A DNA stretch of 15,517 nucleotides. Origin: a virus. Positions 1,312 through 14,566 of the stretch are shown in pieces. Where the stretch lies: the IMG/VR virus record IMGVR_UViG_3300032038_001095. One strand, given 5' to 3'. Made by a program: the position numbers and the translations under genes. Numbering within the stretch: the stretch's first letter is position 1; each line of letters starts with the position of its first letter. The notes under the pieces were generated by a model that searched no databases, was not told where the DNA came from, and saw only the letters and a list, made by a program, of their open reading frames with translations.

Positions 1312-1340
1312 ATTATATAATAATCTTTTTTAAAAATCAA
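1312..1340 (-). promoter_or_regulatory. sigma70-type promoter (minus strand TTGATT-N17-TATAAT)
   Basis: rc reads TTGATTtttaaaaaagattattaTATAAT; member of repeated promoter family. Confidence 0.55.
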
Positions 1341-1480
1341 AGATAATCTCTTAATTCAATATATTCTTCAAAAGAACCTAAAAAACCTTCTTTTACTGCT
1401 TGGTCATATTCTTTTCTAATTTTCTATTCGAAAGTTAAATTTTCCTAATCATTATGAGTCATTACTGATTTATTTTCCAT
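1337..1480 (-). CDS. hypothetical 47-aa protein with two in-frame TAG codons (needs TAG readthrough)
   Basis: GAGAGG RBS 6 nt before ATG at 1480, 3 nt after stop of upstream gene; open to TGA at 1337 only if TAG is sense. Confidence 0.35.
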
Positions 1481-1483
1481 TAT

Positions 1484-1813
1484 TTATCCTCTCAGACTAT
1501 CAATGTAGTCTTTTGCTTCTTTATGAGCAAGAATTGCTTCCTGGTTATAAAGAATCATCTGATTTAGACGTTCTTCTGCTTTCATTTTATTTTCTACGGC
1601 TTCCTGAAGTTTTGTCATAGAACGCTTCATTCTTTTCTTTGTTACTTTTTCTTCGCAGCGGGCGGCCGCCAGCTTTCTTCCAAAATCTGGATCATAATTA
1701 TCTCTAGGATCCAGCTTAGCTACTCCACGAATTGTCTTTCCTGCATAAGTTGAAACTGCGATTGTTTTATTATCTGCTGTTGTAAAAAACTTATACTTTG
1801 TAATTGGAAACAT
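1484..1813 (-). CDS. hypothetical protein (109 aa)
   Basis: ORF, RBS AGAAAGG before ATG 1813, TAA stop. Confidence 0.65.
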   Translation of the reverse strand: MFPITKYKFFTTADNKTIAVSTYAGKTIRGVAKLDPRDNYDPDFGRKLAAARCEEKVTKKRMKRSMTKLQEAVENKMKAEERLNQMILYNQEAILAHKEAKDYIDSLRG

Positions 1814-1843
1814 ATTTTTTTACCTTTCTTATTTATTTTTTAG

Positions 1844-1930
1844 CGACGGCAAAGGGACTCGAACCCCTAATACGCTCATCACGTATTAACGCTTTTCAAG
1901 AGCGTCTCCTCATCCAGCCGGATTACCGCC
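1844..1930 (-). tRNA. tRNA-Ser (anticodon UGA), class II with long variable arm
   Basis: acceptor GGCGGTA/TGCCGTC, anticodon arm ACGCT-CTTGAAA-AGCGT, variable hairpin AATACG..CGTATT, T-arm AGGGG-TTCGAGT-CCCTT. Confidence 0.9.
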
Positions 1931-1943
1931 AAAACAAGAGTCA

Positions 1944-2015
1944 TATGCAAGGAGGGATTCGAACCCTCATAGAATCCTTAAAAGGGATTTGTCTTAACCG
2001 TTTGACTACTTATTT
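1944..2015 (-). tRNA. tRNA-Lys (anticodon UUU) with mismatches at acceptor positions 2 and 3
   Basis: anticodon arm AATCC-CTTTTAA-GGATT, T-arm GAGGG-TTCGAAT-CCCTC, D-arm GTCA..AGAC; 5' strand AAATAAG vs 3' CTTGCAT gives A2-A71 and A3-C70 mispairs. Confidence 0.6.
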
Positions 2016-2038
2016 AAAATTGCTGTATGACTCTTTCG

Positions 2039-2130
2039 CGGTCACAGGTGGATTCGAACCACCGGACGAGGAATTTCCCCGTCGGCGGATTAGCAATCCG
2101 CTGCATTAAGCCAAACTCTGCCATGTGACC
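2039..2130 (-). tRNA. tRNA-Ser (anticodon GCU), class II
   Basis: perfect acceptor GGTCACA/TGTGACC, anticodon arm GCGGA-TTGCTAA-TCCGC, long variable hairpin, T-arm GGTGG-TTCGAAT-CCACC. Confidence 0.9.
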
Positions 2131-2139
2131 ATATACAAG

Positions 2140-2215
2140 ATAGTTTATTTGCGTACGACTCGAACGTACTTTCATTACTTTTGCAGAGTAATTTATCATC
2201 CAGAGATATTAAATA
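2140..2215 (-). pseudogene. degenerate tRNA-like element (Cys-GCA-like anticodon arm plus T-arm, no valid acceptor)
   Basis: TTACT-CTGCAAA-AGTAA and GTACG-TTCGAGT-CGTAC present but 7 extra nt between T-stem and the only complementary acceptor strand; D-arm not formable. Confidence 0.3.
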
Positions 2216-2236
2216 TTGCTGTAACTATCTTTAATC

Positions 2237-2308
2237 TAGCTCGCTAGGGAATCGAACCCTAGATTCTAGTTTTAGAGACTAGCGTCTTAACCACTTGACC
2301 ACCGAGCC
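2237..2308 (-). tRNA. amber suppressor tRNA (anticodon CUA, reads UAG)
   Basis: acceptor GGCTCGG/GCGAGCT (6 bp, G7-G66 mispair), D-arm GTCAAGTGGTTAAGAC, anticodon arm CTAGT-CTCTAAA-ACTAG with U33 and A37, T-arm TAGGG-TTCGATT-CCCTA, A73. Confidence 0.85.
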
Positions 2309-2310
2309 AG

Positions 2311-2339
2311 ATAGCATATAAATTTAATATATGCTATAT
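2311..2339 (-). promoter_or_regulatory. perfect 9-bp hairpin immediately upstream of the suppressor tRNA 5' end
   Basis: ATAGCATAT aaatttaat ATATGCTAT; ATAGCATAT motif recurs at 2506. Confidence 0.3.
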
Positions 2340-2692
2340 TTAATCTATATAAATATAAATTTTTTCATTTACTTAACGCCTAGACATTATTAAGGGGTCT
2401 GCGTTGCCACACCTCATCCATTTTTATAAAATAACGCCTCAATTCAAAAATTTATATTTATATTTTTTCTTTCTTCATTTATTGTTTAATCTGTTAGTTA
2501 AACTCTATAGCATATTATAGTTTTCAAAAGAGGATCAATAAGTACAGAAAAATTAATTAAGTATATTTAGAGGATTATAATAATAAAATAAATAACATAT
2601 GCTTTATTTATTTTATTCTTCAACTATCGTATGAAGAACGTCTGCGGATATATCATTTCACCATACAGAAGGACTCACTTAGGGGGAGTCAA

Positions 2693-2775
<83 letters not shown>

Positions 2776-2829
2776 GTTTATTATTATTCAAATAAAGTTT
2801 TTAATACAAAAGATACTATATATAGATAA

Positions 2830-2938
2830 TTATCAGGGTGAGGATTTGCACCTCACATGACACCCGCGAGAATTTGTTTGTGTCAGATGCTACCTCGCGA
2901 TCCATGTAGTCTATGTCTACCTATTCCATCACCTGATA
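2830..2938 (-). ncRNA. tRNA-like structured RNA (E1) with about 55-nt internal insertion and non-canonical T-loop
   Basis: perfect terminal stem TATCAGG/CCTGATA (extendable to 9 bp), TG, class-II-like D-arm ATGG-AATAGGTAGA-CAT, 6-bp hairpin GTGAGG-TGCAAAT-CCTCAC; middle has crossing CGCGAG/CTCGCG and TGACAC/GTGTCA pairings. Confidence 0.5.
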
Positions 2939-3047
2939 ATATGGTCTTTTCCCATTGCCATCCATATTCTACCATGAAGGGTATCACTGCATTAGTCTCC
3001 CAGTGCGGATATCCGCTATCCAGAATGATCTGGCATCACTTTATCAA

Positions 3048-3237
3048 ATATACTGGTAAGGATTTACACCTTACATGGAAGATTCTGAACTTACGTTAGG
3101 ACTCCATTGCATACTACCCACTCGTGTCTTCCTTCAATCCATCGACTACTTTCAGTCTGATTGCAATTCGATTTCTGATTTCATCGCTGCACCAGTTACC
3201 CAATGCAGTAAGCGTCTACTTATTCCGCCACAGTATA
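3048..3237 (-). ncRNA. tRNA-like structured RNA (E2), paralog of E1, Leu-like D-arm, about 115-nt insertion
   Basis: perfect terminal stem TATACTG/CAGTATA, TG, D-arm GCGG-AATAAGTAGA-CGC (near-identical to tRNA-Leu D-arm), 6-bp hairpin GTAAGG-TGTAAAT-CCTTAC; CTTAC/GTAAG can close the insertion. Confidence 0.5.
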
Positions 3238-3357
3238 TATACAAGACAGCATAAAAAATATTTTTTAATAAAAACCTCTTGTATTTGTTAATGTTAAAAT
3301 AAATTTTTTGATTATTTTGCTGTTTTCTACTGTCTTTATATTAAGATTATTTACTTA

Positions 3358-3702
3358 TTATGCCTGATACTCATCCTTAAAATACCATACATCTCCGTAA
3401 GCTTTATGTGTCTTGGTTCTGCCGTTTAGAGCATCCCCAATACCAGACTTACCTTCCTTACCAATTGCCGCCAAAGCTTCCTTCTGTGTCGCATATTCTG
3501 CAATAATCTTTCCTGTTTCTGCATCAATACGAAGGATTCCGCTCTTATTAGGACTCTTTCTCTTCTTCTTAGCAGCTTCTTCCGCAGCCTGCATTTCCTC
3601 AAGATAGGTGCTGAGGACATCAATTACCTGCTCCTGGATACCTGGATCAAGTTCTCCAGAATGTTCAAAATAAAATAACAAACCCTGTACTTTATCTTTC
3701 AT
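3358..3702 (-). CDS. small protein with NUMOD/IENR-like HTH C-terminal domain (114 aa)
   Basis: ORF with AAAAGGAG RBS; C-terminus SGILRIDAETGKIIAEYATQKEALAAIG...YGDVWYFKDE resembles the DNA-binding NUMOD motif of homing-endonuclease-associated proteins. Confidence 0.55.
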   Translation of the reverse strand: MKDKVQGLLFYFEHSGELDPGIQEQVIDVLSTYLEEMQAAEEAAKKKRKSPNKSGILRIDAETGKIIAEYATQKEALAAIGKEGKSGIGDALNGRTKTHKAYGDVWYFKDEYQA

Positions 3703-3735
3703 AAAAATAAATCTCCTTTTTTCTCTTTTATAATT

Positions 3736-3764
3736 ATTATAACAAAAAATTTATATATTATCAA
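3736..3764 (-). promoter_or_regulatory. sigma70-type promoter TTGATA-N17-TATAAT
   Basis: rc reads TTGATAatatataaattttttgtTATAAT, 30 nt upstream of RBS of 3358-3702. Confidence 0.6.
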
Positions 3765-3774
3765 TTTTTTGAAG

Positions 3775-3845
3775 TTCTCAGGTAAGGAATCGAACCTTAC
3801 AACTAATACAAAGTATTAGAATATTTACCATTAATATTACTGAGA
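3775..3845 (-). tRNA. tRNA with ambiguous anticodon arm (UUU with C33, or UUG)
   Basis: acceptor TCTCAGT/CCTGAGA (6 bp + U7-C66), D TATT/AATA, T-arm TAAGG-TTCGATT-CCTTA; anticodon helix CTAAT(A)/(T)ATTAG leaves loop ACTTTGT or 5-nt CTTTG. Confidence 0.5.
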
Positions 3846-4344
3846 ATTTTATAAATAATACATAGAAAGGAAGATTAAAATATAATTTGTTTAAATTATA
3901 TTTAAAATGTCCTATGTAGGAACTGCCCCTACTCCTCTTATCGCCGCGTCTATCCAAGACATTTGCTCAAGGAAGCTAATTTTATAGGACACGCGGAAAC
4001 GGCTTCCGCACTCCTTTTACCTCTTTTATTAAAAAGAGTGGCTCTCCACTCGAATAGAGATTAAAGATAGATGGTTATTATCCTTTAAGGGGTCTATCAA
4101 CTCCCAGTATTAAAATTAAGTATATTTCGCTTTTTTCATAATCGTCTTCCGCCGGAAATATACAAACTGGTCAGGGACTACGTTCGTCGCTCACGAGACA
4201 AAATATTAATCTCAGGCCCAGAGTTTCCTTATCCTGTGTTCTATTGAAGTCACAATGCTTCAATCTGTGGTCACTTAATATTTCCGCAGGGCTTCATTCC
4301 TACACGTCATATCCTGTTAATTCAGGCCTTACAATCCCTTGAAG

Positions 4345-4416
4345 TAACCGGTAGGAGAATCGAACTCCTGTCCTTACCGTGAAAGGGTAATATCTTAGCC
4401 ACTTGACTAACCGGTC
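4345..4416 (-). tRNA. tRNA-Glu (anticodon UUC)
   Basis: acceptor GACCGGT/ACCGGTT, D-arm GTCAAGTGGCTAAGAT, anticodon arm TTACC-CTTTCAC-GGTAA, T-arm AGGAG-TTCGATT-CTCCT. Confidence 0.85.
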
Positions 4417-4844
4417 CTATGAGACTTACGCTTTGCCTCCGGTATGGGCACACCATTGCCGGCGGTAAGCTGTCTAAGTCTTTATGCTTGGTATTGCGAA
4501 CATGCCCCAAGCGGCGACTCCATTAATTTCTTCTCACTCCGCAGAGTGGAATTTGTCGCTGTGACGTAACAGCGAATCCCCTGATAGCCAATCTTTGGAC
4601 GACCGAGGGTCGGGTTCAACCCCTTATCTGTGCATGACCTATGTTTTCGTTTTAATGTACGAAAACGACATATCTTTATATTCTTTACTCCTAGAATTAA
4701 GACTTAACCGGCATCACTTGAGATGCTTTCAGATTTATAATTGGCAAGAAATAAATCAATTCTTTGATTATCAGGTTATCATCCCAGCCTAACGATGGCT
4801 GACGACCTGTGAATTAAGGTTTTAACAGGTTTTACTTACCTTAA

Positions 4845-4916
4845 CGGGGTTAGAAGGATTTGAACCTTCGTAGTACGGTTAACAGCCGTAAGTCCTAACC
4901 ACTGGACGATAACCCC
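4845..4916 (-). tRNA. tRNA-Asn (anticodon GUU)
   Basis: perfect acceptor GGGGTTA/TAACCCC, anticodon arm TACGG-CTGTTAA-CCGTA, T-arm GAAGG-TTCAAAT-CCTTC. Confidence 0.9.
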
Positions 4917-5049
4917 CTTTTCAAGACCTAATAGACTCTTTTTTGTAAAAATGAGGATACCAAATTCGTTCTATTTTTAAATCTACCTCGTTGCTTTCCC
5001 TAAACTTTTATTCATCAGATATTAAATTGCAGTATAGGTCTTTAAAAAA

Positions 5050-5154
5050 TTAATTAAAAAGTTTGTTTAACTCATCTTCATCTTCTTTAGTCAGTATAAA
5101 TTCAAAATCTTCATATTCTTCATAAGATTCATAGAGATCAAAATCATCAAACAT
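5050..5154 (-). CDS. hypothetical very acidic 34-aa peptide
   Basis: AAAGGAGAAA RBS 6 nt before ATG 5154, TAA at 5050; family promoter 25 nt upstream. Confidence 0.35.
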   Translation of the reverse strand: MFDDFDLYESYEEYEDFEFILTKEDEDELNKLFN

Positions 5155-5185
5155 ATTTTATTTCTCCTTTTCTTTTGATATATAT

Positions 5186-5214
5186 ATTATATCAAAAAAC
5201 TTTTTAAAAATCAA
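5186..5214 (-). promoter_or_regulatory. sigma70-type promoter TTGATT-N17(TG)-TATAAT
   Basis: rc reads TTGATTtttaaaaagttttttgaTATAAT. Confidence 0.6.
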
Positions 5215-5360
5215 TAAATAACGTATTGGTTGAGAAAATTAATAATTGATTTTGAATCTGGACTATGTTGTGCTTCATAGAGATTAATGAACATATGTTC
5301 ATCATTAAAAAACTACTTTAAAAAAGTAAACAATTTTAAATCCTCCTTTCTTTTTTAAAA

Positions 5361-5432
5361 CGGCTTTATTGGGAATCGAACCCAAATCTCTTGATAGACA
5401 GTCAAGTATGCTAACCTTTACACCATAAAGCC
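5361..5432 (-). tRNA. tRNA-Asp (anticodon GUC)
   Basis: perfect acceptor GGCTTTA/TAAAGCC, anticodon arm CTTGA-CTGTCTA-TCAAG, T-arm TTGGG-TTCGATT-CCCAA. Confidence 0.9.
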
Positions 5433-5511
5433 AAAGTTATTTTTCTCAGCCTGTTTTACGTCTCCTGCCTTCAGAAAAATAACAAAACCCTGTTTAGACG
5501 CTATAACTTAT

Positions 5512-5688
5512 TTAATAATCAAATTCCCGAGAAATCTTATCATATATCTCAGTTTTTTCAAATTTTACTGTTCCAAACCTATCTTCCAAAAATTTTACCT
5601 GAGAATAACCTTTGACAAATGTAATATGCTTTTTGTTATCATCATCTTTATAATTGACCATATAAACCACTTCTTTTTTATTTACCAT
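5512..5688 (-). CDS. hypothetical protein (58 aa; possible start at 5709 instead)
   Basis: GAGGAGG 8 nt before ATG 5688; in-frame ATG at 5709 lacks an SD; TAA stop. Confidence 0.55.
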   Translation of the reverse strand: MVNKKEVVYMVNYKDDDNKKHITFVKGYSQVKFLEDRFGTVKFEKTEIYDKISREFDY

Positions 5689-5743
5689 AGTCAAAGCCTC
5701 CTCAACCATTTTTTAAGTTTGAAGTTTTTCTTTTGATATATAT

Positions 5744-5772
5744 ATTATATCAAAAATTTTTTTAAATATCAA
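5744..5772 (-). promoter_or_regulatory. sigma70-type promoter TTGATA-N17(TG)-TATAAT
   Basis: rc reads TTGATAtttaaaaaaatttttgaTATAAT. Confidence 0.6.
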
Positions 5773-5834
5773 GACGTTTTATTTTATAGATTAACAGTCT
5801 ATTCCTTTATTATAATTGCTGTAAACGTCTTTAA

Positions 5835-5907
5835 AGCCGCCCGTGGGACTTGAACCCACAACCTAGAGTTTACAAAACTCTTGCGCTGCCAATTGCGCTA
5901 GAGCGGC
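5835..5907 (-). tRNA. tRNA-Thr (anticodon UGU)
   Basis: acceptor GCCGCTC/GGGCGGC, D GCGC-AATTGGCA-GCGC, anticodon arm AGAGT-TTTGTAA-ACTCT, T-arm GTGGG-TTCAAGT-CCCAC. Confidence 0.9.
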
Positions 5908-6628
5908 ATAAAATGGCGGTCTTTATATATTGGCGCCCACCATTCCTTGAAAAAATAATACTATTTTGGAGTTTTTATGTTCCGGCGCTGCCCTTCCCTT
6001 TTGAGTAGTTTTATACGGACTACCATCCGCTTGATCAAGAAATTTTTTCTTTCCCTCACGACATAGAAAAAATTATCAAAAAATCTGTGCCGACAATACT
6101 AGTCTCTTTTTAGTTATTAAGCCAACTTGGTGAATAGTATTGTAAATAATATCCAATGCTATAAATTTTTTATGTTAAAAAATTTATAAAAAATCACCTT
6201 TTTACGATCGCTTAATGGTGGTGTTAAAAGGAAACCGCACCAAAAATTTTATATCCTATAGAGTTTTTATTAGTTTAATTCCAAATCATCTTAACTTATT
6301 TTTAATTAGCCCAATGGACCATACCTCCATTTCGTTAGGATAAATGCTATACCAAAGTCTTGCACTTTGATTTCCAATTTAATGGCGACTTAACTTTTAG
6401 TCGAGTATAGCCGCATTGATTAAAAAGGTAACTTCATCAATGCTTAAGATTGTGAATCTCATAAGTTTTTCCTTAGTTATTTTAAAAAAGTAGATTAACC
6501 TCTGAACTACTCACAGGGGGCACGTTTTGCTGCAACTAATGGCTCTCCCTTTCTTCACTCTCAACGATTTGCAGATCGCAAGGAGGAGGTTTTATCCCGC
6601 ACTTATAGTGGAGGCGGATCTCCACTAG

Positions 6629-6701
6629 TGAGAGACACGGGATTCGAACCCGCAAAAACTAGTTTCTAAAACTAGAATGTATGCCGTTCCATCAATCTCT
6701 C
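6629..6701 (-). tRNA. class-I tRNA with anticodon UAG (reads CUA; Leu by codon table), A73
   Basis: acceptor GAGAGAT/GTCTCTC, anticodon arm CTAGT-TTTAGAA-ACTAG, 5-nt variable loop, T-arm GCGGG-TTCGAAT-CCCGT; standard 73-nt numbering fits. Confidence 0.8.
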
Positions 6702-6742
6702 TCGGAATATTTTCCAATTCCTTTTCTTAACTTTCTATAAAT

Positions 6743-6771
6743 ATTATATAATATTTTTTAGAAAATTTCAA
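6743..6771 (-). promoter_or_regulatory. sigma70-type promoter TTGAAA-N17-TATAAT directly upstream of the UAG-anticodon tRNA
   Basis: rc reads TTGAAAttttctaaaaaatattaTATAAT; -10 is about 42 nt upstream of tRNA 5' end. Confidence 0.55.
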
Positions 6772-7169
6772 ATAAAAACATTTGAAACGACTATATTAAG
6801 GTTATCGGTTTATATTAATTATTGTAAGTATCTTGAATGGGCAGAGTGGGTGCCGACCCCACTACGCTAAAGAGCAACGGTTTTACAGACCGCCGAGTTT
6901 GCCGATTCTCTGTACCTACCCATGTGGGGTAGTTGAGCTCCCGCTCTAAAGACTAGCCACCCTGCGCCTAGATCTTTTTCCCTGCACCACTCGATGGGAA
7001 AAAATCCAAAAAACTCATGAGGATCACGTTTAGCTACATAGTCACGTCTGACATTTTTCACTATACTAATGACCTTGTACTTCGATCTCCCGTTACTATA
7101 ATCCAACCAGAACGGTGAAGAGGGTGTTCTTAGGTACCGCTAAGGAGCTACCTTAGACGGAGAACACAG

Positions 7170-7242
7170 TAGCGGAACTAGGATTCGAACCTAGGATTAC
7201 TAGCTTATGAGGCTAGTGTCTTAACCACTTGACGATTCCGCT
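7170..7242 (-). tRNA. tRNA-Met elongator type (anticodon CAU; Ile-lysidine type not excluded)
   Basis: perfect acceptor AGCGGAA/TTCCGCT with A1-U72, D-arm GTCAAGTGGTTAAGAC, anticodon arm CTAGC-CTCATAA-GCTAG, T-arm CTAGG-TTCGAAT-CCTAG. Confidence 0.85.
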
Positions 7243-7543
7243 TCATTGTCGGTCTTCCACCGACAGTTTTTAGAAGTTACTTTCTTCATCGGTATAGATT
7301 TTACTTCCCTATACTGAAGTTTACCGAGTGTGCAGTTGATCCTAATCCTCCTTTAGGCTTTGAATCCTACGGTATACTCGTTTCGGATCTTAATCACACG
7401 CATCTCCTGTGAATTGCATAGACTTTATTGATTTATCACCGTATATTACGGCGCTGTGTTCTCCCCACAGATGTTCCACATACAGAGCTTTATTTTCTTA
7501 TCGGCTTTTAATACTTGCCTATCGGTATTTGTTTTATATAATT

Positions 7544-7572
7544 ATTATATAATAATTTTTTTAAAAAATCAA
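7544..7572 (-). promoter_or_regulatory. sigma70-type promoter TTGATT-N17-TATAAT facing the tRNA-Met region
   Basis: rc reads TTGATTttttaaaaaaattattaTATAAT; overlaps stop codon of 7573-8121. Confidence 0.55.
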
Positions 7573-8121: not shown

Positions 8122-8324
8122 TTTTTATTTCTCCTTTTTAAAAATAAACTAGGATACGTCTGCAGCCGCCTAGACTCTTTTTCGCCGAGCAAGCGAGAAA
8201 GTTTTTAGCCACAATCTCTATCGCCGCGTGCTTACCATGTCGCCGGTTAAGTTCTACGTCTTAAAACGTTTAGTTTTATTTAAATTGATAGACTAAATAA
8301 CTATCAGTGGCTTCGTCAGCCAAA

Positions 8325-8397
8325 AGCACCATGTGGGAATCGAACCCACCCCAGAAGATTGGAAATCTACTATACTAATCCAATATACGAATGGTGC
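8325..8397 (-). tRNA. tRNA-Gly (anticodon UCC)
   Basis: perfect acceptor GCACCAT/ATGGTGC, anticodon arm GTAGA-TTTCCAA-TCTTC (one U-U mispair), T-arm GTGGG-TTCGATT-CCCAC; D-loop 9 nt. Confidence 0.75.
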
Positions 8398-8596
8398 ATA
8401 ATTCGGGATAATGGCCATCTTTCCCTATACTTTCAACACTTTGAATAACTACGGCGGAGAAACCTATTAACCCATCCGCGCATATACGACATCTTTAGTT
8501 TTATGGTAAAACTACTGAGGAGTATATGAGGCAATCTGAAAACCTTTACTTTTATTAAGGAATAAAGTAAATAAGACCTTTATATTTTATAGTAAT

Positions 8597-8625
8597 ATTA
8601 TATCAAAAATTTTTTAAAAGATCAA
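8597..8625 (-). promoter_or_regulatory. sigma70-type promoter TTGATC-N17(TG)-TATAAT facing tRNA-Gly
   Basis: rc reads TTGATCttttaaaaaatttttgaTATAAT. Confidence 0.55.
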
Positions 8626-8638
8626 ACAGGTTTTGTCC

Positions 8639-8935
8639 TTATTTACTATGATAACATTTTTTCCAAAATTTATAAAGCTCTTTAAGAGTTGGATAATGTT
8701 CTCGTAAATAAGTATTTTTTAATCCATTTTCCCATTCTTTTTTTACTTCAGGCCATGACCATCTTGATATATAATCATGAATATTCCAAGAGTTATATAG
8801 TTTTTTATAATTTTTGCCATTTGCAAGATTATTTTTATATTTTCTAACTATTTTATTAGCCCTTCGTTTCCATGGTTTTCTTCCTGCTTTTCCTCCATCT
8901 GTACAATAAGGATGTTTTTTAAAAGAACGACTCAT
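8639..8935 (-). CDS. hypothetical basic protein (98 aa)
   Basis: ORF, RBS AAAGGAAGG before ATG 8935, TAA stop. Confidence 0.65.
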   Translation of the reverse strand: MSRSFKKHPYCTDGGKAGRKPWKRRANKIVRKYKNNLANGKNYKKLYNSWNIHDYISRWSWPEVKKEWENGLKNTYLREHYPTLKELYKFWKKCYHSK

Positions 8936-8963
8936 ATATTTTTCCTTCCTTTTTTTATATAAA

Positions 8964-8992
8964 TATTATATAAAAAATTTTTAAAAAAGTAA
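8964..8992 (-). promoter_or_regulatory. weaker promoter (TATAAT -10, TTACTT -35)
   Basis: rc reads ttacttttttaaaaattttttaTATAAT upstream of 8639-8935. Confidence 0.4.
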
Positions 8993-8996
8993 AATA

Positions 8997-9422
8997 TTAC
9001 TATATTCGATACGTATTAATATATGCTAATCCCCAAGAGGGTATCTAAGAATGGTTATTGACATATATATCTATACATCCTTCTTCTACTCCGCGGTCTT
9101 CGCATGTATAATACCCTAAACCCTCAACATAAAGTACTGTTCCATATGGTATATCTTCTCCACATGCACATGTATGATTAGCTTGCGGCCACGCCCCTGA
9201 TGCAGTTGGAGATCCAGCCCATTCTCCACAACAACAAGAGCCGCCGCAATAAAAGGTAACTCTATATTCTCCTAAATAAATTCTTGTCTATTGATAATTA
9301 AATTTCTACTAAATTAATTGCTATTTGAACTAAAGTGTTTTATCACTGATAGCAAATATATTTGAACATGTTAAAAATATCAGTAGAATCATACTACTGA
9401 TTAATTTTATTATTTTTTTCAT
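8997..9422 (-). CDS. secreted 3D-domain protein (MltA-C/YocH-like cell-wall binding/lytic fold), 141 aa, 7 in-frame TAG codons
   Basis: AAGGAGG 6 nt before ATG 9422; N-terminal signal peptide MKKIIKLISSMILLIFLTCSNIFA; motif VTFYCGGSCCCG...TASG...PYGTVLYVEGLGYYTCEDRG...IDIY; readable only if TAG is sense; TAA stop. Confidence 0.75.
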
Positions 9423-9440
9423 TTATTTCCTCCTTAAAAA

Positions 9441-9514
9441 TAGGGACGAGGGGACTTGAACCCCCAGCCTTTGGTTTATAAGACCACTGCGCTAACCGAT
9501 TGCGCCACGCCCCA
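9441..9514 (-). tRNA. tRNA-Ile (anticodon UAU) with U1-U72 mispair
   Basis: acceptor TGGGGCG/CGTCCCT (6 bp + U-U at 1:72), D GCGC-AATCGGTTA-GCGC, anticodon arm GTGGT-CTTATAA-ACCAA, T-arm GGGGG-TTCAAGT-CCCCT; ends 6 nt before RBS of 3D gene. Confidence 0.75.
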
Positions 9515-9518
9515 GTAT

Positions 9519-9806
9519 TTAACATATAAAATATTTTCGTTTAATAGCTTCCTTATTTATAAAAAGGGTAAATCTGTGGCAATCCGCATAAGATTGCCAC
9601 TCCCATGTAAGGACTCTTTGATTTAAAAATTTAAAATTTATTGCATGGAACTGATTTTTCAAAAGAAGAACATAATCTGTCAAAGATATATTTAACATTC
9701 TTGCGGGATGCCACCAATATGCACTACCGTGCGCTAAATCACTAACATCATTGGTGTACCATTTTCCATTCATTTCCCATTCAGTAAATTTTAAAATATG
9801 CGACAT
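9519..9806 (-). CDS. hypothetical protein (95 aa)
   Basis: ORF, RBS AAAGGAAAA before ATG 9806, TAA stop 4 nt before tRNA-Ile. Confidence 0.6.
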   Translation of the reverse strand: MSHILKFTEWEMNGKWYTNDVSDLAHGSAYWWHPARMLNISLTDYVLLLKNQFHAINFKFLNQRVLTWEWQSYADCHRFTLFINKEAIKRKYFIC

Positions 9807-9817
9807 ATTTTTTCCTT

Positions 9818-10129
9818 TTATAGTCCAAGAGAAGCTAAAAGTTTAGATACGTTATCTTTTTCTTCTTGTGTTGGTTCTAATTCTTCTGTTGCGGGAGTTG
9901 ATACAACATTTGAAATTGGATCATTACTAAAAGCACTAAGTGGTGTAGTGCCGCCTTCACCAAGATTATTTTTTGCAGCCGTTAGAGTAACTTTTATTTC
10001 TACTCTAGTCCCATTTTCATCAAGCGGAATCCGCAATATCTTGTTCTCATCTTCCCAGAAGCTACCAGGGTAAATCTCCATCATTTTTTTAAAAATTAGA
10101 TTTTTAGATTCTGTTCCTTTTGCTGCCAT
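9818..10129 (-). CDS. hypothetical protein (103 aa)
   Basis: ORF; start ATG overlaps upstream stop (TAATG). Confidence 0.6.
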   Translation of the reverse strand: MAAKGTESKNLIFKKMMEIYPGSFWEDENKILRIPLDENGTRVEIKVTLTAAKNNLGEGGTTPLSAFSNDPISNVVSTPATEELEPTQEEKDNVSKLLASLGL

Positions 10130-10344
10130 TATTCATTTACCTCGATATATTCTCTCCAATGTTCTGCAAAATAACTTTTAGTTCGGGTTCTGTCTGATGG
10201 TTCGCCTGTAAAAGGATTGATACTAAAAGTATATCCATGTTTACAAAAGCCCTTTTTTCCAGCTTTCTTCATATTCTGCTTAGCGATAGCTCTTTTCTGT
10301 TCTCTTGTTACAATATAATTTTTTGGAACATTCACTTTTGTCAT
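10129..10344 (-). CDS. hypothetical basic protein (71 aa)
   Basis: ORF; TAGGAG RBS; ATG overlaps TGA of upstream gene (ATGA). Confidence 0.6.
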   Translation of the reverse strand: MTKVNVPKNYIVTREQKRAIAKQNMKKAGKKGFCKHGYTFSINPFTGEPSDRTRTKSYFAEHWREYIEVNE

Positions 10345-11159
10345 TTATTTTTCTCCTAAAATGATATTACTATATTTTGATTTTTTAAAGCATAATGTAA
10401 ATCAATAATACGATCACAAATTTGACAAGCGCCATTAGCATTCTTCATACAACGTTTATCACAACTTACTCTTGATTCTCCAAAACGAGGTATAATATAT
10501 TTATTATCTTCTTCTCCTTCATAACCTACAATTAAATCTTTTAATTTTCCATACCATTGTCTATCTTTAGCATAGACTTGATACAAAGTATTTAATCTTA
10601 CAGGATCATCTATATTGGCATAAAATTCAAAAGTATCAATATAATTTTCATAAACTTCTAAGTCTTCAGGTCTAATAAAAAAAGTTTTTATTGAAGGAGT
10701 TTTTTCCCAAGAAGATTCACATACATTACAATAACTGCGTAAAGATTTATTATTTTTTTTAGCATTAAAACTAAGAATTTTAGCATTAAATGCTAAATCT
10801 TCTCCAATAAAGATGTCTGTTACATTTAATTTTAAAAAACCTTGAAATTTATCCCAGGTGGTAATAATTTCATTATAATAATATGGAAAATTATGTTTAT
10901 TTAAATAATTATCTAATTCATTATTAAAAAATGGCATACAGATAAATAATTTACAATTTGGATACTTTTCTTTTAAAGCATCTAAAATTTCAAAATCATT
11001 ATCTATTATGTTATTTTTAAAAATTAAATTAATTCGATGTGACCCATATTTTTCAATAAAATTATCTAGTTCTTTAATTTTTGGTTTATAGTTAATATTT
11101 AATTGAATATCCTAATTTAAATAATTAAATTTTCTAAAAAATGGAATAGCAAATCCCAT
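10341..11159 (-). CDS. hypothetical Cys-rich protein (272 aa) with two in-frame TAG codons (11112-11114 and 10356-10358)
   Basis: AAAGGAGAAA RBS before ATG 11159; frame reads through TAG at codon 16 into ORF 10356-10937 and through its TAG terminus to TGA at 10341 that overlaps the next ATG; C-terminal CX3CX7CX2C cluster. Confidence 0.65.
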
Positions 11160-11190
11160 ATATTTTTCTCCTTTGTATTTTTATAAAATA

Positions 11191-11219
11191 ATTATATCAA
11201 AATTTTTATAAAAATACAA
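11191..11219 (-). promoter_or_regulatory. sigma70-type promoter TTGTAT-N17(TG)-TATAAT
   Basis: rc reads TTGTATttttataaaaattttgaTATAAT. Confidence 0.55.
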
Positions 11220-11225
11220 TTTATT

Positions 11226-11420
11226 TTATTCAAAATTTCGTATATCATTTTCCCATTTTCGCTGTTTTTCTTTTCTTAAATCTTTACGTCTCGGCATAGC
11301 ATTCTTTTTAGCATGATAATCTTTACAAAATTGACATGTTTTTTTAAAAGTACCTTCATGCCCTTTTAAACAATTGCCTTCATTTAAATAATAAACACAA
11401 ACCCTTTCTCTATCTTTCAT
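11226..11420 (-). CDS. small Cys-rich basic protein (64 aa)
   Basis: ORF, AGGAGAAATA RBS, TAA stop. Confidence 0.6.
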   Translation of the reverse strand: MKDRERVCVYYLNEGNCLKGHEGTFKKTCQFCKDYHAKKNAMPRRKDLRKEKQRKWENDIRNFE

Positions 11421-11429
11421 TATTTCTCC

Positions 11430-12122
11430 TTATTCATAAAATCCACTATAATCAATTAAAACAGGACGATTCTTTATATAACCAATATTTTCATTTCTTA
11501 AATCATCATCCCATCCTAAAAGAGATATAAAATCAATAAAACTAAGTAATTGTTCTTCTCCATAGTATAAACGAAAATCTGTTAACCAGTCTTGATTTAT
11601 ACCATAATATTTACAACAATTAAGAGTTTTTATTTTTTCTTCTTTGTTATGTTTATGATTTGTATCACTAAAAGTAGTGCATCTTTCTTGAACATAAATA
11701 GGATAATTATTTATAAATCCTAATAATTCAGTTTTTGCAAAATATTCTGCAAAGCCTTCTGCTAAAGCTGTATTATATCGTTCTACTTCACAAGCACAAT
11801 AGTCCCAAATACGTTCTTTGTTTTCCGCTGCACAATACTCCCAATAATCTACTCTTTCTGGATAATAATTAGAATAACTATCGTAATATTCATATTCATG
11901 GTTATAAGAACCTGTATATGGAATTTTAATTACATAATCTTTTTCTTTATTTAATGGAATGAGTGCGAGCTTGGTGGCCCCATAAGCATAATAATAAAGA
12001 TTAAAAAAATCATTGCCCATATAATTGAAAAATTCATTATTTTTACCCTCATGAAATTCCATTCCATCATAAAAAGGGACTACAGATAACATTTTTAAAA
12101 GTTCTTGTCTATCATATGTCAT
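11430..12122 (-). CDS. hypothetical Tyr/Glu-rich protein (230 aa)
   Basis: ORF with RBS and family promoter upstream, TAA stop. Confidence 0.7.
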   Translation of the reverse strand: MTYDRQELLKMLSVVPFYDGMEFHEGKNNEFFNYMGNDFFNLYYYAYGATKLALIPLNKEKDYVIKIPYTGSYNHEYEYYDSYSNYYPERVDYWEYCAAENKERIWDYCACEVERYNTALAEGFAEYFAKTELLGFINNYPIYVQERCTTFSDTNHKHNKEEKIKTLNCCKYYGINQDWLTDFRLYYGEEQLLSFIDFISLLGWDDDLRNENIGYIKNRPVLIDYSGFYE

Positions 12123-12157
12123 TTAAAATACCTTCTTTGTATTTTTTATATAACATA

Positions 12158-12186
12158 ATTATATCATATATTTTTTAAAAAATCAA
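12158..12186 (-). promoter_or_regulatory. sigma70-type promoter TTGATT-N17(TG)-TATAAT
   Basis: rc reads TTGATTttttaaaaaatatatgaTATAAT. Confidence 0.6.
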
Positions 12187-12213
12187 AAAAGGAAGCTTTT
12201 ACGCTTCCTTTTT
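12185..12213 (-). terminator. rho-independent terminator (hairpin + T-run), symmetric
   Basis: AAAAAAGGAAGC ttttac GCTTCCTTTTT; on minus strand followed by TTTTTTGATTTTTT; overlaps -35 of next promoter. Confidence 0.6.
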
Positions 12214-13098
12214 AATAATACAACGGGAAAGTTTTGTCTGCTTGATTCCTTTATATTCTGAATGTTCTTTTACCGTTCCCGTAAGAAGAATTTCTTCTCC
12301 TTCTTCAATATCTTTACAAGAGGAAGTAATCCATACAAGAACATTTTCTCCATATGTAAAAGTATAAATAAATGATGTGCCATAAAAACTATCAAAACTG
12401 CGGACTGCGGTTAATGTAACCTTAAGATCGCGGAGTCTCTCTTTTATCTCCCCGACATATTCAGAATGAGATTCAGGTTCAAGTGTTGCTTTAGCAGCGT
12501 CCGCAATCTCTTTAGCATTATCTTTAAGTTCAAACCTTTCAGAAAGCGGATACCAAACATATACATCATAAAAATTAATACTTGCCATACCATAACCAAT
12601 AGGAACATCAATTGGATGGTTACTATACCAGCCAAATGCAGGATTAAATTTACATCCCATTTCTTTAAGCTGGTCTTTAATTTCATAGGTACTGCCGCCG
12701 CCAACTAACCAGATAAGAGGATTTTCTACATTATATCCCCACTTAGCAAGAAGTGCTTCCTGGTTTTCTTTACTTTTGTTAAGTTTTTCCTGTCTTTCAA
12801 GTTCAGCTTTTTCAGCTTTCCTTTCTTTTGCTCGTTCCTGAGAAGCAAGATATTTATTCATTTCTTCTTCAGTATAAGCTTTTACCCATTTATGGATTTT
12901 TCCGTCTCCGTGACATTTATAACAAATGCCACCATCAACAGGAATAGGAATAATATGACCATTTTCTACTCTTGCTGCGATAAGACCGGAACCGCCGCAA
13001 CGATCACACTGTTCTTCAATATAAGCCTTTTTTGTATCTTCATTAACAGAGAGGATCTTTGCGTTTTTATAAGAGGGAGCAACTTTCCAATTCATCAT
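12199..13098 (-). CDS. hypothetical protein (299 aa) with N-terminal zinc ribbon (CDRC...CYKCHGDG)
   Basis: ORF, RBS AGGAAG before ATGATG, TAA stop. Confidence 0.7.
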   Translation of the reverse strand: MMNWKVAPSYKNAKILSVNEDTKKAYIEEQCDRCGGSGLIAARVENGHIIPIPVDGGICYKCHGDGKIHKWVKAYTEEEMNKYLASQERAKERKAEKAELERQEKLNKSKENQEALLAKWGYNVENPLIWLVGGGSTYEIKDQLKEMGCKFNPAFGWYSNHPIDVPIGYGMASINFYDVYVWYPLSERFELKDNAKEIADAAKATLEPESHSEYVGEIKERLRDLKVTLTAVRSFDSFYGTSFIYTFTYGENVLVWITSSCKDIEEGEEILLTGTVKEHSEYKGIKQTKLSRCIIKKEA

Positions 13099-13131
13099 AG
13101 GTCATACTTCCTTTCTTCTTTTGATAAATAA

Positions 13132-13160
13132 ATTATATCAAAATTTTTTTAAAAAATAAA
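13132..13160 (-). promoter_or_regulatory. promoter with extended -10 (TGaTATAAT), weak -35 TTTATT
   Basis: rc reads tttattttttaaaaaaattttgaTATAAT. Confidence 0.5.
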
Positions 13161-13161
13161 A

Positions 13162-13395
13162 TTAAATTGCTCTTCTTACTTTCCTTGCAATATATTCACA
13201 CTCGTCTTCTGTTATATTAATAATATTATGATTCTTAAAGACTGTAGTTTGAATGGTATCGTTATTAATATCATAACCTTCTTTTGCCATTTTAATAAAA
13301 TCTTTAATAGCAGCCTCAATATGAGTTTGTCTGGTACTAGTTACAGATTCTATACCTTCGGCTTCCGCAATATAAAGAAAATAATCTAATCTCAT
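13162..13395 (-). CDS. hypothetical protein (77 aa)
   Basis: ORF, AAAAGGAG RBS, TAA stop. Confidence 0.6.
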   Translation of the reverse strand: MRLDYFLYIAEAEGIESVTSTRQTHIEAAIKDFIKMAKEGYDINNDTIQTTVFKNHNIINITEDECEYIARKVRRAI

Positions 13396-13425
13396 ATTTT
13401 AATCTCCTTTTTATTTTATAAATAT

Positions 13426-13454
13426 ATTATAATAAAAAAAATATAAAAAAGCAA
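13426..13454 (-). promoter_or_regulatory. promoter TTGCTT-N17-TATAAT overlapping terminator stem
   Basis: rc reads TTGCTTttttatattttttttatTATAAT. Confidence 0.45.
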
Positions 13455-13474
13455 GAGAGAATAATCTCTCCTGC
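13445..13474 (-). terminator. rho-independent terminator after the Thg1-like gene
   Basis: GCAGGAGAGATTATTCTCTCTTGC hairpin on minus strand followed by TTTTTTATATTTTTTTT. Confidence 0.6.
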
Positions 13475-13476
13475 TT

Positions 13477-14280
13477 TTATTCCTCATTTATAAAGATTAA
13501 TTTATCAATATAATTACGATCATCTTTTAAAATTGGCATTTCTTTATCAATAAACCAATGATTATTTTCATCTTTAATACATGCGGAACCCCGTTTTTTT
13601 ACTATAGGTAAATCATTCCAATTGATATTTTTTTCTGTAAGAAGTTTGTTTTGAAGCTGATTACAAGATAATCCTTGTATTTCTTTATGTGAAAAATTAG
13701 CTTGTGCTACCATTTGAATTGAGTTACGTGTTGCATCGAGCTGCCGCCAATAAATAAGATTAGTTACTTCCTCTTTTGGAATGTTAAAACAACGGGCATC
13801 AAACATTGCACCTTTATTAATTGCTCTACAATATGTATCAATATATTTATTATATTTAGTTTCTTTATTGTTATTACCGTCTATAAAAACATCAACTAAA
13901 ATATCATTTAAATTAGCAATAAGACGTTTATTAAAACTCATAGTAGCCATAGATGCGGCAATACTACAAAGTTTTTGTATTTTATAATCAAACCATGCAG
14001 AACTTTCTAATTTTGCATAATCAATAAGAATCAATGTAATTTCATCTGATTGTGTATATCCAAAAACACATCCTTGGATATTTTCACAAAGATATTGCAT
14101 TGTTTCTTGCATAGTTTTAATTAAAATATCATCAAAAGGTTTTTTAAATTCTCTACAAAAGGTATGAAAACTTTTTCCATCAATACGAATAGCAACAGGA
14201 GTTCTACGAGTTAAACGTACATTTGGTATATTTTCATAGTTTTCTTTCATACGTTTTCCAAGATTATCATGAATCGGCAT
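13477..14280 (-). CDS. thg1: Thg1-like protein (tRNA-His guanylyltransferase / 3'-5' nucleotidyltransferase family), 267 aa
   Basis: AAAGGAGAAAAA RBS before ATG 14280 (track ORF starts 5 codons earlier at a TTG); family motifs KRMKENYE...VAIRIDGKSFHTFCREFKKPFDD...GYTQSDE...KIQKLCSIAAS...IYWRQLDA. Confidence 0.8.
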   Translation of the reverse strand: MPIHDNLGKRMKENYENIPNVRLTRRTPVAIRIDGKSFHTFCREFKKPFDDILIKTMQETMQYLCENIQGCVFGYTQSDEITLILIDYAKLESSAWFDYKIQKLCSIAASMATMSFNKRLIANLNDILVDVFIDGNNNKETKYNKYIDTYCRAINKGAMFDARCFNIPKEEVTNLIYWRQLDATRNSIQMVAQANFSHKEIQGLSCNQLQNKLLTEKNINWNDLPIVKKRGSACIKDENNHWFIDKEMPILKDDRNYIDKLIFINEE

Positions 14281-14291
14281 TTTTTCTCCTT

Positions 14292-14477
14292 TCAACCATA
14301 AATTATTTCAAAACCGCAATCTGGACAAATTATTTTAACAGTTTCATAAGGTTTTCTATTTTTAAATTTAATTAAATTTCCACAAATACAAAAAACTCCA
14401 TTATTAAATTTTTTAGATAACTTCATATCACTTGATAAGCATATTTTCATATCTCTTCTCGGAATTTCTCGTATCAT
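14292..14477 (-). CDS. small zinc-ribbon protein (61 aa, C-x-C ... CPDC)
   Basis: ORF, RBS AAGGAAA, TGA stop adjacent to the Thg1-like RBS. Confidence 0.6.
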   Translation of the reverse strand: MIREIPRRDMKICLSSDMKLSKKFNNGVFCICGNLIKFKNRKPYETVKIICPDCGFEIIYG

Positions 14478-14512
14478 TTATAAATCATTTCCTTTCTTAT
14501 TTTTATAAGTAT

Positions 14513-14541
14513 ATTATATCAAAATTTTATAAAAAAATAAA
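14513..14541 (-). promoter_or_regulatory. promoter with extended -10 (TGaTATAAT), -35 TTTATT
   Basis: rc reads tttatttttttataaaattttgaTATAAT. Confidence 0.5.
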
Positions 14542-14563
14542 GAGGGTGTTAATAACCCTCTTT
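14531..14563 (-). terminator. rho-independent terminator after the SPFH gene
   Basis: AAGAGGGTtattaacACCCTCTT hairpin then TTTATTTTTTT on minus strand. Confidence 0.6.
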
Positions 14564-14566
14564 ATT

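Follow-up and report, generated by a model that had tools for sequence, protein, structure and literature searches.

The early promoters of phages T4 and T5 are dozens of near-consensus promoters of the host type, read through Escherichia coli sigma-70; their conservation goes beyond the hexamers to include spacer, extended -10 and start region, and they capture the host polymerase right after infection. The host-takeover module of SPO1 packs 26 genes into 12.4 kb, with closely spaced promoters, strong ribosome-binding sites and small early genes (PMC6873191). In the P100-like Listeria phage CKA15, early transcription starts have been mapped behind sigma-A-like promoters of the form TTGACTT / ATGxTATACT, and two early promoters, among the strongest of this phage, drive unannotated regions beside tRNA genes (PMC12282133). 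In the present study, we analysed a stretch of 15,517 nucleotides (nt) of viral DNA (IMG/VR record IMGVR_UViG_3300032038_001095; hereafter the window) and found in it 14 near-identical copies of a bipartite promoter element, all on the minus strand, all intergenic and all co-oriented with the genes, so placed that almost every small block of genes or of tRNAs and other RNAs has a copy ahead of it. It is very likely, in our judgement, that these repeats are sigma-A (sigma-70-type) promoters for the host polymerase in a large Firmicutes phage with a recoded TAG codon, and that initiation takes place at the A found 7 nt after TATAAT.

The likeness to SPO1 and CKA15 lies in the arrangement: 14 promoters in 15.5 kb, built as TTGAyT / TnTGnTATAAT, with five RNA-only units in the tRNA array. 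In contrast, the promoter regions show no relationship to those of SPO1 or CKA15 at the sequence level, there is no A/T UP element, the spacer is unusually uniform and TAG appears to be reassigned. Timing and strength in the present case are predictions from sequence. Unlike the promoters of T4 and T5, those described here belong to a different host lineage, carry TnTG or TRTG, have no upstream A-tract block and continue through a purine-rich initial region into a strong Shine-Dalgarno site. The strategy would be a known one. Large Gram-positive phages commonly have the host RNA polymerase read their accessory genes from such promoters, and the window would provide an ordinary but clean example.

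Every gene of the window (32% G+C) and all 16 tRNAs detected by ARAGORN are on the minus strand. The spaced pair TTG-N20-TATAAT occurs 11 times on this strand and never on the plus strand, against 0.39 expected from 500 dinucleotide shuffles (sd 0.61, maximum 3). Shuffles predict 0.15 occurrences of TTGA-N19-TATAAT, which is found 8 times; for TGnTATAAT, 1.05 occurrences are expected and 8 of the 14 copies have it. When a 41-nt weight matrix derived from the 14 sites was applied leave-one-out, members scored 24.4-46.5 bits and the best non-member 19.3 bits, a bimodal distribution; the highest scores in shuffled sequence were 17.5 bits (300 global shuffles) and 20.6 bits (300 local shuffles), with none above 22. 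A generic sigma-70 scan, by comparison, is uninformative in bulk in DNA so rich in A/T: it returned 84 sites versus 70.7 +/- 8.7 in shuffles, with no overall enrichment. Family members nonetheless make up 12 of the 18 generic hits with at least 10 of 12 matches. The copies at 13160 and 227 fall outside the 60 listed generic hits, and the copy at 11219 is ineligible, its -35 matching at only 3 of 6 positions.

The original prediction had described a family of at least 12 promoters and listed 13 sites, all of which were recovered on the minus strand. What it called a looser copy, at 8964-8992, is a genuine site read one base out of register (8993-8965, TTTACT-17-TATAAT, is correct), and its list lacked a fourteenth copy (227-199, TTGTTT-17-TATAAT) that emerged from the TTG-N20-TATAAT scan. 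The perfect extended -10 which it ascribed to the family, TGnTATAAT, is held by 8 of the 14 copies and missing from the others. The near-identity of the copies is not confined to the hexamers but takes in spacer and start site as well, a point that had been left uninterpreted.

The window consensus reads TTGATtTTTtaaAAAaaTTtTgA-TATAAT-AtaTaTATAAAA. All 14 copies have TATAAT and a spacer of exactly 17 bp. The -35 hexamer begins with TTG in 11 copies (TTGA in 8) and with TTT in three, and TGn is present in two of the three copies with this weak TTT -35. A larger compendium of 61 sites comprises the window and six related loci. Its composition is partly circular because the sites were selected with the matrix; the same features reappear, however, with sites chosen solely by TTG-N20-TATAAT. 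In this set the T, T, G and A of the -35 (consensus TTGAyT) are found in 61, 61, 50 and 51 sites, and those of the TnTG element (counted from the -10, T at -5, T at -3 and G at -2) in 61, 61 and 50; TATAAT is essentially invariant. The discriminator consists of A/T only and leads to a start triplet T-A-(T/G), with T at position 11 in 56 and A at position 12 in 59 of the 61 sites; this A is placed exactly 7 bp past the -10. Without exception the spacer measures 17 bp; it is nearly G/C-free and runs in the order T-tract, A-tract, T-tract; relatives frequently read TATG at the extended element, which is thus TRTG. Neither in the window nor in the 61-site set is any block conserved upstream of the -35, hence there is no UP-element signal.

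These features correspond to described ones. Firmicutes typically have a TG or TRTG extended -10, the start site is chosen by a YRY/YRR start element whose centre lies 7 bp after the -10, an AT- or AG-rich discriminator is a Terrabacteria trait and an AG-rich initial transcribed region a Firmicutes trait, and A/T tracts within spacers by themselves alter promoter strength (PMC12641261). Found together in the family are a -35 like TTGACA, TATAAT at 17 bp, TGn, a purine start triplet and a co-oriented position upstream of genes, as expected for a housekeeping sigma. Each conserved block would map to a described RNA-polymerase contact or promoter element (PMC12641261), and the conserved positions can be explained with no additional factor, even if the uniform spacer would allow one.

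One can envision the following course of events. The unmodified host RNA polymerase holoenzyme would contact the -35 (TTGAyT) through sigma region 4, the TnTG "-16" or extended -10 through region 3 and the invariant TATAAT through region 2, the hexamers being set apart by the optimal 17 bp. The A/T-only discriminator and the T-A-(T/G) triplet 7 bp after the -10 would fix initiation at the A, giving transcripts that start with AUAAAA or AUCAAA and pass through a purine-rich leader of 23-29 nt, with AAGGAG, to the start codon. In three cases the promoter is joined to the terminator of the gene before it, and the U-tract of this terminator doubles as -35 region. In a secondary role, the repeats of ~45-75 bp at cassette borders might act as homology patches for the gain, loss and movement of cassettes.

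On this reading the 15.5-kb region would be divided into at least 14 short transcription units (Table 1). Nine of the 14 promoters have an ATG 23-29 nt past the predicted +1 and five head RNA-only units, with leaders of 35-295 nt to the RNA genes. The flanked genes are mostly shorter than 120 aa and without known family. A Shine-Dalgarno sequence of the GGAG, GAGG or AGGA type precedes 16 of the 20 genes scored; that of Thg1, whose start was mis-set in this scoring, is AAGGAG by eye. Packing of the units is extreme, some -35 elements abutting or overlapping the stop codon upstream (Table 1). The suggestion that several promoters are dedicated to tRNAs is correct in part only, for four of the five RNA-only units start with long structured leaders that are not tRNAs. 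Only P6771 fires directly into a tRNA; P8625, P7572, P1340 and P227 first read non-coding leaders of 138-295 nt. A stable hairpin adjoins three of the 14 copies only (14541, 13454 and 12186), with energies of -14.7 to -21.9 kcal/mol. For the remaining 11 copies, the 53 nt ending in the -35 have a minimum free energy of -1.5 to -9.2 kcal/mol and there is no terminator-like G+C-rich stem followed by a T-run.

Megablast of the whole window against GenBank phages produced a 54-bp hit only, and the phage therefore has no annotated close relative among them; an exact look-up of the 299-aa protein matched no record. Relatives were reached through homologues of this protein (81-90% identity; contigs up to 137 kb), and eight loci were fetched, each covering +/-10 kb around one gene. 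In close relatives the matrix scores above 22 bits at 6-13 sites per 10-21 kb, every one of them on the strand that carries the main gene block, and the element is present and co-oriented in 10 related phage loci. Distant relatives, found through Thg1 (58-61% identity), display the same design in lineage-specific variants: copies in locus L003 read TTGACT ... TATG ... TAGAAAG and all six in L002 have TTGATT. Besides Thg1 and tRNAs, the DNA-level similarity of these distant relatives to the window is confined to the promoter cassettes. Among P13160 orthologues from seven relatives, identity is 0.93 in the 41-nt core, 0.63 at third codon positions of the downstream gene and 0.70 in the leader; the corresponding values for P12186 are 0.84, 0.59 and 0.57. 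The excess of core identity over third codon positions at these two orthologous sites shows purifying selection on a functional element. The exact promoter string occurs in 8 stretches of IMG/VR, 7 of them with a single match; for the degenerate bipartite pattern, single matches are common across unrelated viral contigs among the matches listed.

The small gene block that relatives carry on the opposite strand is headed by one perfect TTGACA-17-(TGt)TATAAT-...-TAGAA promoter, back-to-back with a plus-strand family member. The spacer of this promoter is not A/T-only, and because of this difference it had escaped the matrix. A separate promoter class for the opposite-strand blocks was considered and dropped, the divergent intergenic regions holding the sigma-A-type TTGACA-17-TGtTATAAT. 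Since these blocks also start with a sigma-A-type promoter, the whole sampled region looks sigma-A driven.

The sigma-70-type reading of the original prediction is thus borne out by the bipartite layout, the optimal 17-bp spacing, the strict co-orientation with genes and the fixed distance of 23-29 nt to the ATG, as well as by purifying selection at two orthologous copies and recurrence in related phages. We infer use of the host polymerase, a start at the predicted A, high strength and early timing. That the promoters are early and strong is suggested by their near-consensus elements, by their cargo of small ORFans and tRNAs and by analogy with SPO1 (PMC6873191) and CKA15 (PMC12282133). Several observations weigh on the other side. 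The spacer, with its T-run, A-run and T-run, is more uniform than polymerase contacts alone would need, so that an additional factor, or recombination that homogenises the copies, may be at work. The sampled region offers no contrasting promoter class by which the family could be told to be early in particular, the concentration of synteny breaks at promoters (see below) is confounded by their location at gene boundaries, and the assignment to Firmicutes is built on indirect signals.

That the copies are chance A/T-rich hexamers without function in DNA of 32% G+C can be dismissed with near certainty. The generic sigma-70 scan, not enriched over shuffles, and the frequency of single degenerate-pattern matches in unrelated viral contigs would be in keeping with such an origin, yet it is refuted by 11 occurrences against 0.39 expected, by the complete strand bias and by matrix scores outside the null, and again by the fixed distance to start codons and by orthologue conservation above synonymous sites. 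It is also quite improbable that the motif is read by a phage-encoded sigma factor or phage RNA polymerase whose specificity would account for the ~41 nt of conservation. Like promoters that serve phage-specific polymerases, the motif is conserved through spacer and start region. However, promoters of single-subunit (T7-like) phage polymerases are a contiguous block of 20-23 nt (-17 to +6) with no bipartite layout, whereas the information here is bipartite and the spacer drifts among relatives. Information peaks at TTGA, TnTG, TATAAT and the +7 start triplet with 17-bp spacing, the signature of a housekeeping sigma (PMC12641261); among relatives the spacer sequence varies while the hexamers stay fixed, and no protein of the window matches a sigma factor or a polymerase. 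The spacer itself inspires another explanation, namely that the G/C-free T5-6 A5-7 T4 sequence, partly palindromic, forms together with the start region an operator through which a phage or host DNA-binding protein switches the whole family off, or on, in concert as infection proceeds. By eye count there are ~3 G/C in the non-TG spacer positions of 11 window sites chosen by hexamers, against 15-30% G+C in the flanking spacer DNA (100-nt windows), and the spacer pattern is common to the relatives. Gram-positive phages are known to shut off their early promoters in a coordinated manner by means of phage factors. An anti-sigma factor that acts on AT-rich promoter features has been discussed (PMC12282133). 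Nevertheless, we deem an operator unlikely: no candidate regulator was identified, A/T spacer tracts affect promoter strength on their own (PMC12641261), the relatives' opposite-strand promoter works with a different spacer and spacer details drift between lineages.

A further explanation, which we regard as possible though short of probable, is compatible with promoter function. The repeats could be primarily portable promoter-terminator cassettes, similar to the PeSL elements of T4-type phages, serving in evolution chiefly as short homology for inserting, deleting and moving small gene or RNA cassettes; their near-identity would then stem from recombination (concerted evolution) and not from selection on every base. 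PeSLs set a precedent for such elements (PMC2839356, PMC4122927). In comparisons with seven relatives, promoter cassettes make up 7.9% of the sequence and contain 38 of 95 synteny-block edges (11 of 38 non-redundant clusters), and gene content between promoters is highly mosaic. L012 and L145 are without the Zn-ribbon/Thg1 cassette, the terminator of the vault-like gene and a -35 being joined to the spacer, leader and gene of P13454; in L012 the junction falls between -35 and spacer. P5772 and P5214 both align to a single promoter of L013, at 18138, with permuted flanking segments, and in L147 the cassette of promoter and 34-aa gene (P5214) is located elsewhere. A terminator stem-loop is fused to three of the copies, variants are lineage-specific and uniform within a genome (the six TTGATT copies of L002, for example), and a decayed copy, which may be a relic of a former cassette boundary, sits inside the longest non-coding island. 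Yet the enrichment of synteny breaks is confounded because promoters lie at gene boundaries: breaks are expected there regardless, as insertions do little harm between genes and gene borders are where alignments stop, and indels without a promoter are also seen (window 11417/11419 versus L012). Inheritance of the odd TTTATT -35 of P13160 at the orthologous site in 6 of 8 genomes points to vertical descent rather than constant homogenisation. As in PeSLs, sigma-70-like promoters of presumably high strength are repeated between small ORFans; indel and rearrangement junctions lie at the repeats in PeSLs (PMC2839356, PMC4122927) and may do so here. Unlike in PeSLs, the stem-loop that defines these elements is found in 3 of 14 copies only, where it precedes the -35 instead of lying between the hexamers or across them, its stem is not of the polyG/polyC kind and the host is most likely Gram-positive. 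Since there is no sequence homology, the repeats would be an analogue of PeSLs and not a member.

Table 1. Putative promoters and other features discussed in the text; positions refer to the window or, where a locus is named, to that locus.
Feature	Position	Strand	Elements	Predicted +1	Score (bits)	Surroundings and remarks
P14541	14501-14541	minus	TTTATT-17(TGa)-TATAAT	A 14506	35.5	29-nt leader, 61-aa Zn-ribbon gene, then Thg1; orthologue after vault-like gene in L012, L013, L016
P13454	13414-13454	minus	TTGCTT-17-TATAAT, without TGn	13419	26.2	24-nt leader, 77-aa gene
P13160	13120-13160	minus	TTTATT-17(TGa)-TATAAT	13125	44.3	27-nt leader, 299-aa gene; -35 begins 1 nt past upstream stop codon
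P12186	12146-12186	minus	TTGATT-17(TGa)-TATAAT	12151	34.0	29-nt leader, 230-aa gene
P11219	11179-11219	minus	TTGTAT-17(TGa)-TATAAT	11184	40.9	heads 2.2-kb unit of 5 genes (two with in-frame TAG) and tRNA-Ile
P8993	8953-8993	minus	TTTACT-17-TATAAT	8958	38.8	23-nt leader, 98-aa gene; register also confirmed by generic promoter scan
P8625	8585-8625	minus	TTGATC-17(TGa)-TATAAT	8590	37.2	193-nt structured leader, tRNA-Gly, further non-coding stretch, 182-aa gene
P7572	7532-7572	minus	TTGATT-17-TATAAT	7537	46.5	295-nt GC-rich leader, tRNA-Met; -35 abuts preceding stop codon
P6771	6731-6771	minus	TTGAAA-17-TATAAT	6736	24.4	35-nt leader, tRNA-Leu(TAG)
P5772	5732-5772	minus	TTGATA-17(TGa)-TATAAT	5737	46.4	65-aa gene, then tRNA-Asp
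P5214	5174-5214	minus	TTGATT-17(TGa)-TATAAT	5179	41.4	25-nt leader, 34-aa acidic peptide gene, non-coding islands, tRNA-Asn, tRNA-Glu
P3764	3724-3764	minus	TTGATA-17(TGt)-TATAAT	3729	24.5	27-nt leader, 114-aa gene, non-coding islands and at least 6 tRNAs including CTA suppressor; orthologous in L012, L013, L146, L147
P1340	1300-1340	minus	TTGATT-17-TATAAT	1305	40.9	YrlA-like/tRNA-like RNA (1297-1172; 138-nt leader), tRNA-Pro, tRNA-His; -35 overlaps upstream TGA stop
P227	187-227	minus	TTGTTT-17-TATAAT	192	34.9	fires into GC-rich non-coding island (about 180-60)
Decayed promoter copy	6157-6197	minus	GTGATT...CATAAA		19.3	top non-member; within longest non-coding island
Terminator hairpin after vault-like gene	14542-14566	minus	U-tract TTTATTTTTTT = -35 of P14541			RNAfold -16.1 kcal/mol (53 nt ending in -35); kept with different stem sequences in L012, L013, L016
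Terminator hairpin after Thg1	13447-13478	minus	14 bp; tail overlaps P13454 -35			RNAfold -21.9 kcal/mol
Terminator hairpin after 299-aa gene	12186-12213	minus	11 bp; tail enters P12186 -35			RNAfold -14.7 kcal/mol; stem preserved through different sequence in L148
Opposite-strand promoter	L146 ~8230-8290	minus				
Opposite-strand promoter	L016 ~2700-2760	minus				
Opposite-strand promoter	L145 ~5090-5150	minus				
Opposite-strand promoter	L013 ~3560-3620	minus				
Opposite-strand promoter	L148 ~6830-6890	minus				
Non-coding island	8398-8590	minus				
Non-coding island	8124-8324	minus				
Non-coding island	7243-7537	minus				
Non-coding island	6840-7168	minus				
Non-coding island	5908-6627	minus				
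Non-coding island	4917-5049	minus				
Non-coding island	4417-4844	minus				
Non-coding island	3851-4343	minus				
Non-coding island	2776-3357	minus				
Non-coding island	60-192	minus				
Island part conserved in relatives	8544-8323					
Island part conserved in relatives	8349-8135					
Island part conserved in relatives	4622-4424					
Island part conserved in relatives	3996-3898					
165-nt RNA module	4645-4478	minus				
165-nt RNA module	L012 9450-9618					
165-nt RNA module	L013 18690-18858					
165-nt RNA module	L147 18339-18507					
165-nt RNA module	L146 18779-18913					
165-nt RNA module	L149 3766-3932					IMG/VR phage contig
165-nt RNA module	L021 1803-1973	minus				IMG/VR phage contig
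tRNA-like cloverleaf	3850-3780	minus				UUU anticodon-like loop
tRNA-Cys-like gene (GCA)	2232-2133	minus				irregular D region
tRNA-like fold	2830-2940	minus				see text for inserts
tRNA-like fold	3045-3245	minus				see text for inserts
tRNA, anticodon CTA	2236-2309	minus				
tRNA, four-base anticodon (taaa)	471-545	minus				8-nt anticodon loop; ARAGORN
ORF with 2 in-frame TAGs	11159-10341	minus				
ORF with 7 in-frame TAGs	9422-8997	minus				
ORF with 1 in-frame TAG	8121-7573	minus				
ORF with 2 in-frame TAGs	1480-1337	minus				
34-aa peptide gene	5050-5154	minus				behind P5214
Thg1-like tRNA-His guanylyltransferase gene	13477-14280	minus				beside tRNA array
Vault-like protein gene	14567-15517	minus				C-terminal part in window
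Full-length vault-like gene	L013 6081-8561					826-827 aa
Full-length vault-like gene	L016 5437-7920					826-827 aa
Full-length vault-like gene	L145 6890-9373					826-827 aa
Homing-endonuclease ORF (LAGLIDADG) and Thg1 ORF	L147 7673-9515					endonuclease ORF precedes shortened Thg1 ORF

Some of the genes next to the promoters deserve mention in their own right. The vault-like protein encoded at the edge of the window matches Pfam MVP_shoulder (E = 2e-23); full-length versions in relatives give a faint Vault_3 hit, and the gene is present in some relatives and absent in L146 and L148. The Thg1-like gene is absent from L012, L145, L146 and L148. The 34-aa peptide behind P5214, whose translation was checked, is extremely acidic (MFDDFDLYESYEEYEDFEFILTKEDEDELNKLFN).

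About ten non-coding islands of 40-55% G+C, together ~3.8 kb, are intercalated between the tRNAs, against a promoter/spacer background of 15-30% G+C. Apart from tRNAs they gave no Rfam match at E <= 10, and the idea that they represent known RNAs was rejected. Parts of some islands are conserved in relatives (Table 1); others had no counterpart in the relatives sampled. A 165-nt RNA module without Rfam match, found immediately ahead of a tRNA or of a hairpin and tRNA, recurs in four close relatives. Two IMG/VR phage contigs that otherwise differ also have it, and a tmRNA is present on one of the two. When the seven sequences are aligned, pairing extends to 91.8% of cells, with compensatory changes at 11 of 34 pairs; none of 500 shuffles did as well, and pairing in slid registers is 35-48%. 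A covariance model of the module finds a single copy in the window, and the notion that the islands are copies of one RNA family was rejected. The tRNA-Gly leader behind P8625 (8590-8398) is likewise conserved with compensatory changes. Promoter, leader and tRNA-Gly are kept as a unit in L012, L013 and L147, L146 retains promoter and leader, and the promoter is the most conserved part. The island that forms the P7572 leader has a fold z of -2.9. Behind P1340, the RNA at 1172-1297 (fold z = -3.0) has a 10-bp closing stem around a T-arm, a hairpin and a D-arm, in the order of the YrlA layout, and scores 25.8 bits with the Rfam YrlA model, below the gathering threshold of 69; there is no Ro (rsr) gene in the window.

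The same strand contains four tRNA-like genes missed by both ARAGORN and the Rfam tRNA model. Two are listed in Table 1 as a cloverleaf and a tRNA-Cys-like gene; the other two have canonical acceptor, D and T arms with inserts of 55 to ~110 nt in place of the anticodon or variable arm. ARAGORN in intron mode found no additional tRNAs in the window. The tRNA with the four-base anticodon taaa may act as a suppressor, of frameshifts or related to ochre codons, or may simply be degenerate.

The Firmicutes-like host of the original prediction finds support in indirect signals, and the host is most likely a member of the Firmicutes (Bacillota), judging from strong Shine-Dalgarno usage, TnTG/TRTG and the following findings. 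The closest cultured relatives are Bacillus phages SP-10 and SBSphiC, with 33% identity in one protein, and one homologue of the 299-aa protein is encoded on a 130-kb contig binned as Clostridia. The Bacteroidota sigma-AB pattern (TTTG at -33, TAnnTTTG at -7) has 0 matches on either strand of the window versus 0.82 expected. Readthrough of TAG is required to keep four open reading frames (ORFs) intact, each with a good Shine-Dalgarno site (Table 1); one of them, the Cys-rich 141-aa gene containing 7 TAGs, still matches PHROG families if Q is placed at TAG. From the in-frame TAGs and the tRNA with anticodon CTA, it appears that this phage, with a genome of ~135 kb, reassigns TAG. Family promoters stand upstream of the CTA suppressor tRNA and of all the TAG-containing genes, no other promoter class being found in the sampled region.

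The promoter family yields a reliable map of transcription units for a clade of uncultured ~135-kb phages and, through Firmicutes-type promoters and genes led by Shine-Dalgarno sites, a clue to the host lineage. The promoters are compact and probably strong, properties of use in Gram-positive synthetic biology, and the motif provides a handle for locating phage accessory cassettes. The position of the CTA suppressor and the TAG-containing genes behind family promoters bears on the timing of stop-codon recoding. The more novel leads are the mosaicism of promoter-bounded cassettes and the uncharacterised structured RNAs driven by five promoters. It is tempting, if rather speculative, to picture the ~45-75-bp cassette (promoter, start region, Shine-Dalgarno leader and sometimes terminator) as a portable module in a TAG-recoded gut phage lineage, by which recombination would shuffle ORFans, tRNAs and structured RNAs. 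An early promoter of the host type within each RNA-only cassette would then drive a structured RNA of no described family (such as 4645-4478 or 8590-8398), which might play a role in host takeover or in the control of tRNAs and translation.

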